A stretch of 64,000 nucleotides of DNA, taken from Flocculibacter collagenilyticus. Lineage in GTDB: Bacteria; Pseudomonadota; Gammaproteobacteria; Enterobacterales; Alteromonadaceae. Below, piece by piece: positions 29,180-41,574 of this stretch. A program made the position numbers and the translations under genes. Under the pieces are notes generated by a model. The model was not told where the DNA came from. It worked only from the letters and a program-made list of their open reading frames with translations, and did not search any database. Position 1 is the first letter of the stretch. Every line of letters begins with the position of its first letter. Where the stretch lies: positions 3,235,899 to 3,299,898 of the forward strand of contig NZ_CP059888.1 in assembly GCF_016469335.1 (NCBI RefSeq). The letters are read 5' to 3'.

Positions 29180-30784
29180 TTAGGAAGATAAATCACGCCA
29201 TTTAAGCCCAAATTTACCTAAGTATTTCTGTAGTCTGCTTGAGTCATTAGGTTGCGACTTCATCGTTCTACTCACATTGAATAGCTCCCTGCCCGCCGAT
29301 GCCATACTGTTATGGTGTTCACATACCCCGAGTACAAAACTAAGCTGGTTCGCGTCAAAGTGATCTAACTGAGCAATCGCTTCTGGCGATAGGTAGTTAG
29401 CTAAGCTCGTTGCTGTTGATGGCTGCTCTGTGTCAAACCAAGCTACATTCAGCCGCTCAATTTCATCTGTTACATCAACCGCTGTAATTCTAGAAGAGTC
29501 AGCCAGGGTGCAAAGGCGCGTAATGGCTGAACTTAAATCACGAAAATTACTGGTCCATAACGCCTTATTAGACGTTGCAAAATCTACAAAGGCTAGCTTT
29601 GCTTCTTTGTTAAATTGCACTCGCTGCCCTGTGATTTGGGCATAACGATCCAGCTCATAATCAATGTTGGCAGGAATATCTTCTTTTCTGTCTTTTAGTG
29701 CTGGTAAGTCATACGCCCATAAATTTATTCTGGCGAGTAAGTCTTCCCGAAAGGCGCCCTTCTTAACTTCTTGTTTTAAATTACGATTCGTACCTGCAAT
29801 TAACTGAAAATTGCTCTTTACTGGTGTATCACTGCCAACGGGATGAAATGTTTTATTTTCAATAGCATGCAGAAGCATCGCTTGCTCTTCCAAACCTAGC
29901 TCACCAATTTCATCTAGAAATAACACGCCATTATTCGCGGTGAGTAAAAAGCCTTCTCGCGCACTTTGAGCGCCAGTAAAGGCACCTTTAGTGTGACCAA
30001 ATAATGCCGCCATCGCATTTTCGCCCTTTAACGTGGCGCAGTTTACCGACACCAAATCGCCTTTAAGCATTGCACGCTTTTTCTTAAGTTGAAAAATACG
30101 CGTAGCAAGTTGGCTTTTTCCAGCTCCTGTAGGCCCTGTTAGTAACATAGGATCATGAGAGCGAATAGCCACTTTTTCTATTTGAGTAATTAAACGATTA
30201 AACGCTACATTCTTGGTTTTAATCCCACCTTTTAAAAACGCTTTGCCTTCAAGATGCTCCCGATCAAACCGGGTGGCGAGCTGATCATATTTAGACAAAT
30301 CCAAATCAATAATTTGAATACGGCCAATTGACTTATTTTTACTATCTTTGTCGGGCGACGTTTGAATGAGTCGCCCCGGAAAATGGCGGCTTTCAGTGAG
30401 TAGATAACTACATATTTGAACAACATGAGTACCTGTGGTGATATGAAACAAATAATCATATTTATCTGTATCAAACGTTTGCTGCTGACACCAATCAAAT
30501 AGCTTGGCGTATACTTCCTCAAAATCCCATGGATCATTAAAGTTAACCAAATGAAGTACTACGTTAGTTTCAGGAGATACCGATTCAATATCTACGGCAA
30601 CATTGTTCGCAAGGCGGTTGCTGTGATTGTCATGCAGCATGTGAAGTTGATCGATAATTAAATCTTCCTGACTACATAAACTGACATTGGGCCGCCACCT
30701 CGCCCATCTATCCACTCTTTTCCCAACATAATCTAATTGTGTTCCAATTAAACTGACAGCAACCGTTTTCTTTTTCAAATTCAA
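29180..30784 (-). CDS. rtcR: sigma54-dependent transcriptional activator RtcR (CARF-like N-domain + AAA+ + HTH)
   Basis: 534 aa; collinear with E. coli RtcR (VAFGFVGT..LDY, PWDFEEVYA, LLTGPTGAGKS, GAFTGA sigma54-contact motif). Confidence 0.9.
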   Translation of the reverse strand: MNLKKKTVAVSLIGTQLDYVGKRVDRWARWRPNVSLCSQEDLIIDQLHMLHDNHSNRLANNVAVDIESVSPETNVVLHLVNFNDPWDFEEVYAKLFDWCQQQTFDTDKYDYLFHITTGTHVVQICSYLLTESRHFPGRLIQTSPDKDSKNKSIGRIQIIDLDLSKYDQLATRFDREHLEGKAFLKGGIKTKNVAFNRLITQIEKVAIRSHDPMLLTGPTGAGKSQLATRIFQLKKKRAMLKGDLVSVNCATLKGENAMAALFGHTKGAFTGAQSAREGFLLTANNGVLFLDEIGELGLEEQAMLLHAIENKTFHPVGSDTPVKSNFQLIAGTNRNLKQEVKKGAFREDLLARINLWAYDLPALKDRKEDIPANIDYELDRYAQITGQRVQFNKEAKLAFVDFATSNKALWTSNFRDLSSAITRLCTLADSSRITAVDVTDEIERLNVAWFDTEQPSTATSLANYLSPEAIAQLDHFDANQLSFVLGVCEHHNSMASAGRELFNVSRTMKSQPNDSSRLQKYLGKFGLKWRDLSS

Positions 30785-30929
30785 TATCCAAATAGATACA
30801 TTTAATATCCAAAATAATATATACGTTAGTTACACATTACAACACGGCCTGCACTAAAAACAGCACAAATAAAAATATAAATCAATAAAACAATTAGTTA
30901 TGAATTATTTTTAACTACTTAAACACCTT

Positions 30930-30945
30930 TGGCACGTGACTTGTA
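30930..30945 (+). promoter_or_regulatory. candidate sigma54 (-24/-12) promoter: TGGCAC-N5-TTGT
   Basis: tttGGcacgtgacTTGTa; -24 GG is perfect, -12 is TTGT instead of TTGC. Divergent from rtcR, about 90 bp upstream of the tRNA-like element. Confidence 0.4.
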
Positions 30946-31034
30946 ATTACATAGGTACTTGATTATTTAGCTGTGATTAAAATATCACGCTGGTGCACTA
31001 AGCAATGCGAATGTGTATGCCTAATCAAGTAACC

Positions 31035-31106
31035 ATTTAAGTAGCTCAATTGGCAGAGCATCGAACTTTCATTCGATTGTTGTGGGTTCAAGTCCCACCT
31101 TAATAA
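31035..31106 (+). ncRNA. tRNA-like element (tRNA mimic or pseudo-tRNA) in the rtc operon leader
   Basis: Hand fold: canonical D-arm (U8 A9 GCUC AAUUGGCA GAGC), canonical T-arm (GUGGG UUCAAGU CCCAC); 5-bp anticodon-like stem with a 6-nt loop (cuuuca); acceptor-like stem 5/7 paired; no CCA. Confidence 0.5.
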
Positions 31107-39158: not shown

Positions 39159-39488
39159 CTACGTTAACCTTAAATAGCTACTCACAGTTTGTTTGATAAT
39201 TGAGACTAACTCTTCATCCATGTATTGATACTCATCTGGAATATCAAGTACTTGTAAATCTTTATAATCTAGAAGCCGAGTAAACTGTGCTTTTAGCCTA
39301 CTTTTGTGTTTTTCTTCCATAACGAAAATCACATCTGCCCACTCAATGTCTTTTACATTTACCGTGCGTTTGGCTTTTGGGCTTGTTCCAGCCGATCTTG
39401 CTGCAACCTCTGGATGATTTTTCCAGACTTGCTCGCCCGTTGGGCTACGCCACTGGTTTCTACTACATATAAATAAAAGGTTTTTCAC
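39159..39488 (-). CDS. low-molecular-weight phosphatase-family protein (CX5R P-loop; LMW-PTP/ArsC-like)
   Basis: LLFICSRNQWRSP = [LIV]CxxNxxRS P-loop; DP general-acid motif (VLDIPDEY); single Cys; 109 aa. Confidence 0.55.
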   Translation of the reverse strand: MKNLLFICSRNQWRSPTGEQVWKNHPEVAARSAGTSPKAKRTVNVKDIEWADVIFVMEEKHKSRLKAQFTRLLDYKDLQVLDIPDEYQYMDEELVSIIKQTVSSYLRLT

Positions 39489-39704
39489 TTATTCATCCTT
39501 AATAGGCATTTCATCATCTAATGTTTGCCTAAGTGTCTTTCTTGGGTACTCGATACCCAGCTGTTTGGCTCTATGCAACTTCTCTGAACGACGATACGTT
39601 AACTTCCAGTTTTTCTCTGGAGTATGTCTTTTCTCTGTGAGTAGTGCTGCTTTATTTTTCTTTTGCTTTGACCGTCTCCAAAGCTTGTTTCTAGTACTGA
39701 ACAT
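39489..39704 (-). CDS. small basic protein (71 aa, no recognised family)
   Basis: Lys/Arg-rich N-half; its stop abuts the start of the phosphatase gene, and it lies between prfH and the phosphatase gene. Confidence 0.35.
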   Translation of the reverse strand: MFSTRNKLWRRSKQKKNKAALLTEKRHTPEKNWKLTYRRSEKLHRAKQLGIEYPRKTLRQTLDDEMPIKDE

Positions 39705-39784
39705 ATTAAATACTCTATTAATTATCGGATTTTGCAGCCGCGATAATACGAAGAGTTTAAATACCCTTGGGTACCTATCTCGCC

Positions 39785-40411
39785 CTAGTCAACTAGAGCG
39801 AATTTTTCGTCTTTAAATGTTTTTACTGGGTTGCCGCGCTCCAACTCCCAATGTTGTTGCCAGCGTGCTTTTTCTTGCAACGACAATTGTGCATGCTTGG
39901 TCGCTTCTAGTTTTTGAAATAATAATGCCCTAGCTAAACGCTTATTAGCATGCTGACTTCTTTCACTTTCAACTCTTACTGCCACTCCCGTCTCGGTGTG
40001 TACAGCCCTAACCGCAGAGTCCGTTTTATTAACGTGTTGTCCGCCAGCTCCCGACGCCCTACACGTTTGAAAAGTAATGCTTCGATCAAACTGAATATCA
40101 TTTATTTCGTACATGTGTCCGCTAAAAAACCAGTTTTTACGCTTATGCTTTGATCTAAACTGACTTTGGCATACCCATAACATGGTTCCCTGCCAAGATG
40201 CAGCTAACCGCTTGGCATCTGGTGTTTTGCCAGAATCAAGCTGCATTAATACAGATTTAAAACAAGCCGGCGTGCTCATTTCAATGGCTTCAATAGTTTC
40301 TAGTTTTATACCTTGTGCTTTACATTGTTTTTCAATTGCTTTTAGCGCTAACCCTACTGCGTTTCCACATTCAACAGGCCCTTGGCCTGCGGATAATTGA
40401 AGTAATATCAT
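39785..40411 (-). CDS. prfH: peptide chain release factor H
   Basis: [16 protein letters not shown] (compare E. coli PrfH MILLQLSSAQGPEEC) and [19 protein letters not shown] motif. ATG 40411 overlaps the rtcB2 TGA (ATGA coupling); the track start at 40420 is TTG. Confidence 0.9.
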
Positions 40412-41574
40412 GATGAACAATTTCCATTTGTTTTAAAGGTTAAAACCGGGCGCAATTTTGCCACCACGTCAATAAGACCAGCATCAACCATATCGCTAAT
40501 CACTGTTTCACATTTTTTATAGGCTTGTGGTGCTTCATCGTATAAAAGCGCTTTATTACCACATACCACCCGGCTACCCAACGCCGTTCGATATAAGTCT
40601 TCACGCTTGTACTTATGACCTAACCGACTATGGCACTCACCACGCTTCCATTTCCTTCCTGCACCGTGTGCTAAAGAAAATAAACTTGTCGACATGTTTT
40701 CATGCTTATTGATCAATGGCTTTACCAAATAGCTATAGTCACCGCGCGAACCAGGAATCACTACATAGCCGTTGTCACTTGGTGTTGCACCTTTTCTATG
40801 TAACCAGCCGGCTTGTTCATCAATTACTTTAGGTGAAACCAAATTGTGATTTACATCTAGAGTGCAGTAACCATTAGTTCTTATCGCTTCTAAAAAACGT
40901 TTGGCAATTAATTCGCGATTAAGCTCTGCCCAACGAACAGCTTCATTATGCTTATTCATGTAATCAAGAAAGTCTTCGTCCATCTCGGTTAAACCGTCAT
41001 GATTATGCGCCGTAATATGATTAACCAAAATTGATTGCCCCAAGCCTCTAGAGCCAGAGTGTACTAGCAACTGTAAATGTTTTTCATTTAAGCCGAGCTC
41101 CGTTAGAGCGGTTTGATCATAAACATGTTCAATGGCCTGAAACTCGGCAAAATGATTCCCTCCACCAATAGTGCCTAAAGCATGATCAAAGGCATTGATG
41201 GTTATGCCTTTCTCAGCTTTGCGCGTATTAATAATCGGTGACCAGCTTTCATCTAAAGGGTGTTCTATATGCTCAAACTTTTTAGCTAATTTATCTATAT
41301 TTACCTTGGACACAGCCTTTGAGGTTTGCCATAACGCCATACCACAGCCAATATCATTACCTACCAAAGCAGGATAGATCTTATTCGTTGTGAAAAATGC
41401 CGCTCCAATTGGATAGCCTCTTCCTGGATGCAGATCTGGCATGCCGGCAACACGGTGCATACCAGTTAATGTTGATGTTTTTATCAATTGTTGAATTGCT
41501 AGCCCTTCAATCCACGTATTTGCAGATGCAATTAGGCTAACGTTTTCAGTAATTTTTTGGACGGATTTGCCCAT
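40408..41574 (-). CDS. rtcB2: RtcB-family RNA ligase, PrfH-associated paralog (RtcB2)
   Basis: 388 aa; RtcB motifs ([32 protein letters not shown]); translationally coupled to prfH. Confidence 0.9.

Follow-up and report, generated by a model that had tools for sequence, protein, structure and literature searches.

The chromosome of Flocculibacter collagenilyticus (Pseudoalteromonadaceae, Alteromonadales) carries, at positions 29180-41574 (both strands) of the 64,000-nucleotide stretch analyzed here (hereafter, the window), a locus in which three RNA ligation systems adjoin one another. Unit (i) includes rtcR and, divergent from it on the plus strand, a tRNA-like RNA, a Band-7 gene, rtcB, rtcA, rlaP, and a gene for a HEAT-fold protein, in this order. 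Units (ii), rtcB2-prfH, and (iii), rnl-HD-pnk, are both located on the minus strand and converge on unit (i). A preliminary description of the window had already proposed the three adjoining systems. Scanning of the window proteins with Pfam and NCBIfam profiles at curated cut-offs found all the genes that it had named in place and above the cut-offs, and every family assignment held; its gene list lacked a phosphatase gene, both cis-regulatory leaders, and the second structured RNA of the rtc leader. The genes and the terminator shared by units (i) and (iii) are as follows (SD, Shine-Dalgarno sequence; ORF, open reading frame; LMW-PTP, low-molecular-weight protein tyrosine phosphatase):

29180-30784, minus strand: rtcR, activator of the sigma-54 class whose N-terminal part is an RtcR/CARF-type sensor (NF038308, 766 bits against a cut-off of 650; PF06956, residues 5-187; PF00158, residues 190-355)
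31416-32585, plus strand: Band-7/SPFH protein of 389 amino acids (PF01145, 99.6 bits); the SD-ATG at 31416 is the probable real start
32752-33978, plus strand: rtcB (RtcB1), 3'-phosphate/5'-OH RNA ligase (PF01139, 424 bits, full length)
33988-35058, plus strand: rtcA, RNA 3'-terminal phosphate cyclase (NF003246, 407 bits against a cut-off of 352; PF01137 and PF05189)
35094-35906, plus strand: rlaP, Pol-beta nucleotidyltransferase extending RNA 3' ends (PF10127, 299 bits, profile positions 2-247 of 249)
35953-36966, plus strand: HEAT/ARM-fold protein (ORF6) of 337 amino acids, real start 35953 (AlphaFold2 and Foldseek)
36969-37005, both strands: bidirectional intrinsic terminator, AAAAGTTACCTA-N8-TAGGTAACTTTT, a 12-bp inverted repeat between A and T runs
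37040-38302, minus strand: HD-pnk (PF01966, residues 70-140, HD phosphoesterase; PF13671, residues 266-393, P-loop 5'-kinase, AAA_33)
38295-38954, minus strand: rnl, minimal ATP-dependent ligase of 218-219 amino acids (PF09414, 111 bits, E=1e-31); the probable start is the second ATG, 38951
39159-39488, minus strand: LMW-PTP-like catalytic domain of 109 amino acids (PF01451, 33.9 bits against a cut-off of 23.2)
39489-39704, minus strand: 71-codon basic ORF, corresponding to the N-terminal extension of a ~183-residue phosphatase form
39785-40420, minus strand: prfH, release-factor homolog (TIGR03072, 250 bits against a cut-off of 167); true start ATG 40411
40408-41574, minus strand: rtcB2, PrfH-associated RtcB paralog (NF007153, 550 bits against a cut-off of 407; TIGR03073, 526 bits)

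The inverted repeat of the terminator can be read directly from the sequence, and units (ii) and (iii), on one strand, meet unit (i) there as had been described. The gaps between units (ii) and (iii), previously called short, are larger than that: 830 bp separate prfH from rnl and hold two ORFs and a structured leader. The G+C content is 0.38-0.43 over 29-42 kb, equal to that of the flanks, and therefore gives no compositional hint of recent import. No mobility genes were found at the locus borders, and PADLOC returned no defense-system match within the locus. Every single module is already published. What we add is that the rtcB2-prfH-phosphatase-rnl-HD-pnk array recurs and often converges with an RlaP-containing rtc unit, that a leader type known as PA5471.1 in Pseudomonas aeruginosa is widespread, and that rnl has a start-stop leader opposing its SD (anti-SD).

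Recurrence of the linkage in related genomes

We scanned one genome per species for relatives of HD-Pnk and searched 10 kb on each side of the resulting 80 loci for homologs of the window genes by tblastn. An Rnl gene lies directly upstream of HD-pnk at 71 of the 80 loci, a pair already known. At 23 loci, rtcB2-prfH is located directly upstream of rnl in the same orientation, and at one more it is located downstream; rlaP is found at 10 loci, rtcB1 together with rtcA at 9, and all three units at 6. These 23 are spread over Pseudoalteromonas (many species), Motilimonas, Endozoicomonas, Alteromonadaceae, and Kangiellaceae. Across them the identity of HD-Pnk to the window protein drops from 76% to ~50%, and the order rtcB2-prfH-(phosphatase)-rnl-HD-pnk is kept. 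The assembly is non-random: the three-unit grouping recurs in Pseudoalteromonas, Endozoicomonas, and Kangiellaceae, and the array of units (ii) and (iii) also in Motilimonas and Alteromonadaceae.

The same parts are also joined in other ways. In Algicola (L036, 3414-6972), rtcR is followed after a 54-nt gap by a co-directional rnl-HD-pnk, with rtcB-rtcA divergent on the other side. Alteromonadaceae M269 (L048) has an rtcB2-prfH-rnl-HD-pnk-x-rtcB-like array with rlaP divergent upstream, and in P. gelatinilytica and a Kangiellaceae genome (L012 and L032) rlaP is convergent on HD-pnk, 340-510 nt apart. Because PrfH is sporadic and the adjacency is present in more than a quarter of the genomes, chance adjacency is implausible; the several architectures of the same parts would point to selection for proximity.

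Comparison with neighboring genomes, which the preliminary description had suggested as a check, did not reveal one block present or absent as a whole. Relatives hold units (ii) and (iii), units (i) and (ii), or unit (iii) alone. Since the modules also occur apart, the locus points to modular accretion rather than to one inherited block. Burroughs and Aravind reportedly described modular accretion of RtcB/PrfH systems in 2016. The accretion idea is thus not new for these systems, PrfH-RtcB having been found to be sporadic, horizontally spread, and accreting accessory genes (PMC6514570).

Such behavior would also be expected if independent, horizontally mobile cassettes had piled up fortuitously at a permissive chromosomal site, a frequent habit of defense and repair genes, with no division of labor. 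This reading would fit the separate control element of each unit, the single or paired modules of the relatives, and the Rnl-HD-Pnk pairs on large IMG/VR viral contigs. However, different families combine these parts in at least four gene orders, a pattern that is difficult to account for unless proximity is selected. Moreover, the order rtcB2-prfH-(phosphatase)-rnl-HD-pnk persists at ~50% protein identity, and the locus has neither a G+C anomaly nor a mobility gene at its borders. We consider a purely fortuitous co-location unlikely.

The rtcB2-prfH unit and its leader

The two genes of unit (ii) overlap by ATGA at 40411-40408, in agreement with the translational coupling described previously. 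PrfH (208 residues) contains the GGQ motif (SGAGGQ) and does not have release factor (RF) domain 1; it is a short PrfH of the E. coli type, without a C-terminal tail. PrfH and RtcB2 of E. coli rescue and repair ribosomes damaged by colicin E3 (PMC9304027, PMC9223846), and the repair concerns 16S rRNA cut at A1493/G1494 (PMC9304027). The accessory genes reported at PrfH loci encode tetratricopeptide repeat (TPR), nucleotidyltransferase (NTase), and ZnR/charged-helix proteins (PMC6514570); the phosphatase, rnl, and HD-pnk are not among them. Upstream of rtcB2 lies a leader with a short upstream ORF (uORF):

41575-41769, minus strand: rtcB2 leader, in which a strong SD precedes a 13-codon uORF (41749-41708), MTYTSKSFAGLVR; its four conserved segments, complementary to one another, are A (41769-41759), B (41730-41717), C (41639-41627), and D (41583-41577)

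The uORF sits ~130 nt before rtcB2. We examined 22 related loci and saw a 13-codon uORF in 21 of them, with 14 codons in L012 and 22 codons in L024. A 15-codon uORF with matching flanking blocks is located upstream of ykfJ, the rtcB2 remnant of E. coli K-12 (L081, 1712-1992); this leader was located via the K-12 coordinates, and E. coli genomes contained no blastn match to rtcB2-prfH. Pairing tables revealed that A:B, C:D, or B:C pairings are possible in nearly all leader sequences, and the B:C helix carries compensatory changes in L004 (Endozoicomonas) and in E. coli. The fold z-score of the leader is -3.6. Segment D lies between the SD and the start codon of rtcB2, the C:D pairing is located beside the rtcB2 start, and no clear U-tract terminator was seen in the leader. 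We infer an ON state among these alternative pairings. In Kangiellaceae, the conserved uORF nucleotides are read in another frame with the ORF length kept; therefore, the position of the ribosome, not the peptide, appears to matter.

PA5471.1 of P. aeruginosa is a 13-residue leader peptide, the stalled translation of which relieves attenuation of armZ (an RtcB2 homolog) and PA5470 (prfH) (PMC3516279, PMC12057347, PMC13041342). As judged by uORF length, position, and alternative helices, the rtcB2 leader is by analogy the counterpart of PA5471.1. The E. coli rtcB2-prfH and P. aeruginosa PA5471.1-armZ-PA5470 loci share with the window a coupled rtcB2/prfH, a short leader ORF, and alternative RNA pairings; by contrast, in the window the phosphatase gene and rnl-HD-pnk follow the pair, co-directionally. 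The PA5471.1 mechanism was called unique to MexXY regulation in a 2025 review. The leader sequences suggest that this type of leader is general to operons of the rtcB2-prfH type, ranging from E. coli to Alteromonadales, a generality that was not found stated in the literature searched.

ArmZ is the P. aeruginosa ortholog of RtcB2, is encoded behind the same leader type and upstream of prfH, and binds the repressor MexZ. By extension, RtcB2 could be mainly a regulator and the locus an antibiotic-response switch more than a repair system. We give this very little credence, as no mexZ or mexXY-like genes lie beside the locus in the window, the window RtcB2 scores as a full-length ligase (NF007153), and RtcB2-PrfH of E. 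coli is a genuine ribosome repair pair (PMC9304027, PMC9223846, PMC13166195).

The rnl-HD-pnk unit and its start-stop leader

HD-pnk and rnl overlap by 8 nt, and the motif I reported for the ligase (KMDGEN) is present as EKMDGEN, both as expected for an Rnl-family ligase gene overlapping HD-pnk. Rnl also contains CGENLY and EGYVVR; these motifs are nucleotidyltransferase motifs only, and no PDB relative of Rnl was found by sequence. HD-Pnk contains an HD motif and a GISGSGKST loop, and its kinase domain resembles the Clostridium thermocellum Pnkp kinase (4gp7, E=2.8e-8). The HD-Pnk/ligase cluster of Runella slithyformis (Munir and Shuman 2017; PMC6097658) likewise has a ligase ORF overlapping the HD-Pnk start and an HD-Pnk that begins with an HD domain and ends with a P-loop kinase. 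In Runella the partners are Tpt1 and a methyltransferase (MTase)-HIT protein, whereas in the window the upstream partners are the LMW-PTP-like phosphatase and rtcB2-prfH. A further feature that sets the window operon apart from the Runella cluster is the start-stop anti-SD leader, which has the following elements:

38949-39095, minus strand: rnl leader, 147 nt; SD at 39095-39090 (AGAGGA), followed after 7 nt by a start-stop ATG-TAA at 39082-39077
39082-39071 with 38964-38953, minus strand: helix P1, ATGTAATTCCAT pairing with ATGGAGTTATAT and covering the rnl SD
39066-39058 with 39021-39013, minus strand: helix P2, a hairpin between the P1 arms
38998-38992 with 38987-38981, minus strand: helix P3, a hairpin between the P1 arms

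As RNA, the P1 arms are AUGUAAUUCCAU and AUGGAGUUAUAU, the latter of which holds the rnl SD and ends at the rnl start codon. The SD-AUG-UAA arrangement was found in 24 of 68 Rnl loci, some of them without prfH; for the duplex analysis, L075 (with a TAG stop) was dropped from this set and L008 was added by a hand-made pattern. The P1 duplexes have a mean energy of -12.0 kcal/mol, compared with -4.7 ± 2.1 for shuffled arms, and the arms co-vary (UAACACC/GGUGUUA, CCUUC/GAAGG, and CCUCGCU/AGCGAGG). In a 12-sequence alignment, 85% of the cells are paired under the three-helix model, compared with 25-45% when the model is slid, and 10 pairs change on both sides; with the structure taken from the window sequence, the covariation is 0.273 compared with 0.138, and 0 of 500 shuffles reach it. 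RNAalifold returned no structure for a 22-sequence alignment of rnl leaders, because the middle of the leader is poorly aligned. The leader had no Rfam match, and a published description of a conserved element pairing AUG-UAA with the ribosome-binding site (RBS) of rnl was not found.

Two other readings of this region were set aside. The P2 hairpin with the T-run behind it (39066-39010) was considered as a terminator between units (ii) and (iii); the hairpin is kept in relatives and the T-run is not, so the hairpin is more likely part of the leader fold. A sigma-70-like promoter before rnl is not credible, its lone match overlapping the rnl start codon.

Because the helix over the rnl RBS has the start-stop mini-ORF as its other strand, occupancy of the mini-ORF would open rnl translation. 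A ribosome on AUG-UAA would melt P1 and expose the rnl SD, and slow termination or recycling would raise expression. In E. coli, ribosomes bind to start-stop mini-ORFs such as those of yecJ and hslR (Meydan et al., bioRxiv 10.1101/520783). The window mini-ORF differs from these in that it is located in a 5' leader, is kept from genus to genus, and makes up one side of the helix sequestering the SD of the downstream gene.

HD-Pnk of Runella strips 2',3'-phosphates and phosphorylates 5'-OH ends, working on both RNA and DNA, and its neighboring ligase self-adenylylates and sealed none of the tested 3'-OH/5'-phosphate substrates (PMC6097658). Unit (iii) could thus be a DNA or a dual DNA/RNA break-repair pair, linked to the RtcB units through a shared response to genotoxic stress; in this context, agents that damage DNA induce the rtc operon of Salmonella, and RtcB is able to work on DNA ends (PMC7790460). 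Three points count against such a pair, which we regard as improbable: the ligase belongs to the Pfam RNA_ligase family (PF09414), the predicted expression device of rnl is translational, and the recurrent partners are all directed at RNA or the ribosome, namely PrfH, RtcB2, RlaP, and the tRNA-like RNAs, together with CCA-adding-like, SpoU, and tRNase Z-like proteins in relatives.

HD-Pnk relatives are also encoded on 19 IMG/VR viral contigs (L085-L103), mostly of 100-600 kb, 12 of which have an Rnl relative upstream. The rnl-HD-pnk pair may also travel on jumbo phages.

The rtc unit, its promoter, and its RNAs

RtcR, at 766 bits in NF038308, is encoded divergently from the rtc unit, in which rtcB and rtcA code for a full-length ligase and a full-length cyclase. 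Three further elements lie before the Band-7 gene:

30930-30944, plus strand: predicted sigma-54 type -24/-12 promoter of the rtc unit, TGGCACGTGACTTGT, with one mismatch to TGGCAC-N5-TTGC
31035-31105, plus strand: tRNA-like RNA (Rfam RF00005, 51 bits; ARAGORN "tRNA-???") with D- and T-arm consensus and a 6-nt anticodon loop
31243-31373, plus strand: rod-like hairpin RNA of 131 nt, lying after the tRNA-like RNA and before the Band-7 gene, with GUUGGUAAG/CUUACUAAC closing it; fold -47 kcal/mol

The -24/-12 element is also kept in an alignment with L005, L006, and L012, and it presumably drives the rtc unit. The RtcR of Salmonella responds to damaged tRNAs, that is to say, to tRNA fragments with 2',3'-cyclic phosphate ends (PMC7790460).

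The tRNA-like RNA is the sole Rfam match in the locus at E<=1. ARAGORN did not call an anticodon because the loop has six bases. The RNA corresponds to the predicted b7a-tRNA (for "band 7-associated tRNA"), described in bioRxiv 10.1101/312249, which cites Burroughs and Aravind 2016. tRNA-like genes lie directly upstream of the Band-7 gene in 7 related loci (L004, with three copies, L006, L012, L029, L032, L047, and L060), and the "anticodons" of one species bear no relation to those of another (Met, Ser, Lys, Asn, Thr, or undetermined). Relatives hold one to three copies before the Band-7 gene (L004, 21047-21261; two or three in tandem in L006 and L012) and the window one.

A long rod-like hairpin also forms in L004, L005, L006, and L012 with differing stem sequences (RNAalifold consensus, -43.5 kcal/mol). 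The hairpin had no Rfam match, and a description of the 131-nt RNA was not found in the literature. The hairpin recalls the closing stem of Y RNAs.

The protein previously labeled a slipin is a member of the Band-7/SPFH family (PF01145), and the narrower label of slipin is not supported; no obvious hydrophobic segment was seen by eye in the translation of its N-terminus. ORF6, which had been called HEAT-like, had no Pfam or NCBIfam match and belongs to a family of ~337-residue proteins. Its AlphaFold2 model, with a predicted local distance difference test (pLDDT) score of 88 with a 25-sequence alignment and of 45 from the single sequence, and Foldseek give a HEAT/ARM solenoid, in support of the earlier label. 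Among the top solved-structure matches listed, nearly all are solenoids of the ARM, HEAT, or designed alpha-repeat kind, with template modeling (TM) scores of just 0.2-0.4, and ORF6 has a GYRRE...NDWVPQVR segment in common with the Pfam HEAT_2 protein that is encoded at the equivalent place in L047.

The window thus resembles the RtcR-regulated rtcBA/Band-7/b7a-tRNA variant, reportedly predicted by Burroughs and Aravind 2016, and its studied analog, Salmonella rsr-yrlBA-rtcBA, in the divergent rtcR, the sigma-54 promoter, the tRNA-like RNA directly before Band-7, and the presence of rtcB and rtcA. It differs in the one tRNA-like copy, where close relatives have two or three, the extra 131-nt rod-like RNA, and the 3'-terminal HEAT-fold gene. 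The Pseudomonas rtc operon, as in the window, has RlaP inside the operon. Pseudomonas RlaP homologs add 1-2 nt and leave a 3'-OH, an end incompatible with RtcB and compatible with a 5'-phosphate ligase (PMC12776372).

In the rtc units of relatives, CCA-adding-like, SpoU, or tRNase Z-like genes take the place of the HEAT-fold gene. The accessory genes swapped in these units (L005, 11304-14951; L032, 12547-13518; L004, 8243-8830; L047, 7314-8687) encode PolyA_pol+HD (CCA-adding-like), SpoU methylase, metallo-beta-lactamase/tRNase Z-like, and proteasome-like proteins and a 457-residue HEAT protein.

A split LMW-PTP-like gene between prfH and rnl

The TAA stop of the 71-codon ORF abuts the GTG start of the 109-residue catalytic ORF, which has its own SD. 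Alignment with homologs (P0132, P0138, and P0201) revealed that the two ORFs together correspond to one ~183-residue phosphatase split by the in-frame TAA. The catalytic half contains a CX5R(S) P-loop (CSRNQWRS) and a DIPDEY motif, and it has weak PDB matches to Wzb and YwlE. Compared with the LMW-PTP fold of ~150 residues, the 109-residue window domain matches the PF01451 profile partially and scores far under the NCBIfam cut-offs. The reading as a pseudogene with an internal stop (39159-39704) was set aside in favor of a split gene, given the SD and GTG of the catalytic half, its many 109-residue homologs, and the lack of room for the extension in Pseudoalteromonas loci.

The family is large (5514 hits, 70-88% identity across genera). 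Among the 80 HD-Pnk loci, the phosphatase gene lies within 10 kb in 20, and in 18 of these it is located between prfH and rnl. Members of the family were found next to prfH, next to rnl, or alone.

Flanking genes

The hipBA module, which had been described as flanking the locus, is located at 21788-23439, 5.7 kb away; a MarR gene, a methyltransferase gene, moeA, moaE, moaC, a MoCF-domain gene (mog/moaB-like), and moeB lie between it and rtcR. No transposase-like ORF of at least 90 residues was seen in the 17.5-29.2 kb interval of the window. An ORF-poor stretch of 0.8 kb with fragmentary small ORFs just upstream of hipB (21000-21790) may be the insertion sequence (IS) debris of the preliminary description. 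Just past hipBA, ~8 kb from the RNA-repair locus, is a gene for a YicC-like endoribonuclease (20129-20992).

On the other flank, the two DUF genes described earlier, DUF2157 and DUF4824, are indeed the right neighbors. The pair (41846-43791) is divergent from rtcB2, likewise in Colwellia psychrerythraea (L082, 1819-3695), and was not seen in the 80 HD-Pnk loci. Its position beside rtcB2 may reflect local synteny or a functional link.

A probable composite RNA-damage-response locus

Together, these results make it likely that the locus is a composite RNA-damage-response locus, accreted from three known modules, each apparently switched on by its own read-out of damage to the translation apparatus. 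Gene identities, architecture, and the conservation of linkage and of RNA elements, including covariation, come from our analysis; the enzyme activities and the sensing by RtcR and PA5471.1 come from the literature on homologs. The start-stop mechanism, the division of labor between the ligases, and any role of the phosphatase, the Band-7 and HEAT proteins, and the RNAs are proposals of ours. Calling the locus a defense island against ribotoxins, as the preliminary description did, is reasonable by analogy with the published work on each module.

In unit (i), RtcR would sense tRNA fragments with 2',3'-cyclic phosphate ends and activate the sigma-54 promoter, the transcript from which would carry the tRNA-like RNA, the rod-like RNA, and the genes for Band-7, RtcB, RtcA, RlaP, and the HEAT-fold protein. 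RtcB would join 3'-phosphate or 2',3'-cyclic phosphate ends to 5'-OH ends, RtcA would cyclize 3'-phosphates and thereby regenerate cyclic ends, and RlaP would restore one or two lost nucleotides. In unit (ii), the 13-codon leader would report ribosome stalling, and the attenuation of rtcB2-prfH and the phosphatase gene would be relieved; PrfH would then free ribosomes stalled by 16S rRNA cleavage, releasing the peptide, and RtcB2 would reseal the rRNA. In unit (iii), HD-Pnk would turn 2',3'-cyclic phosphate or 3'-phosphate ends and 5'-OH ends into 3'-OH and 5'-phosphate ends for Rnl to seal. Ends with a 3'-OH made by RlaP, which RtcB could not join, would be joinable by such a 5'-phosphate ligase. 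Jointly, the three units would deal with the two end chemistries and with tRNA and rRNA as the two main targets, through one transcriptional and two translational sensors.

Several observations weigh against the composite reading. The sigma-54 promoter with RtcR, the leader peptide, and the start-stop anti-SD helix are separate control elements; therefore, the units are independently regulated, and co-expression is not implied. The 23 loci with the rtcB2-prfH-rnl adjacency are phylogenetically related, and the independent events are fewer than 23. The modules also occur in part: in Colwellia psychrerythraea, DUF4824-DUF2157, rtcB2-prfH, and a 183-residue phosphatase converge on genes for an AAA_13 ATPase and SpoU, an unassigned ORF, and genes for RlaP and a CCA-adding-like protein, without rnl-HD-pnk; most P. 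luteoviolacea genomes have units (ii) and (iii) with no rtc unit within 10 kb; and Vibrio L001 has the phosphatase and unit (iii) only. The families of the HEAT protein and of the phosphatase are both found outside any RNA-repair context as well, and the phosphatase gene is interrupted by a stop in the window. Finally, the Runella ligase did not seal the substrates offered and the Runella HD-Pnk is also active on DNA (PMC6097658); the RNA-sealing role of unit (iii) is therefore unproven.

A more ambitious version, which we offer tentatively and hold to be rather doubtful, is that rtcB2-prfH-phosphatase-rnl-HD-pnk forms one ribosome-damage pathway rather than a pair of adjacent cassettes. The 13-codon leader and the start-stop helix would be serial translational sensors that tie expression to malfunctioning ribosomes, the start-stop being held open by slow termination or recycling at AUG-UAA. 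Breaks beyond the reach of RtcB enzymes, including 3'-OH ends left by RlaP or by trimming, would be sealed by Rnl and HD-Pnk, perhaps assisted by the LMW-PTP-like enzyme in the role of an RNA-end phosphatase. If true, such a pathway would answer a question raised in the RlaP study, namely by which route the products of RlaP are ligated.

The composite reading leaves the parts classified as before. In this locus known parts are arranged in a new way, and it is better seen as a useful natural experiment than as a new kind of system. Bacterial RNA repair is known module by module; by setting a 3'-OH/5'-phosphate healing and sealing pair beside RlaP and RtcB, the locus gives a concrete, testable answer to the RlaP end problem. 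For the Runella-type ligase, the conserved partnership with PrfH-RtcB2 suggests breaks in rRNA or tRNA, on stalled ribosomes, as candidate substrates. A leader peptide described as specific to MexXY in P. aeruginosa appears to be general to rtcB2-prfH operons, the E. coli remnant included, and gene control through ribosome occupancy would have a simple and conserved case in the start-stop anti-SD leader.

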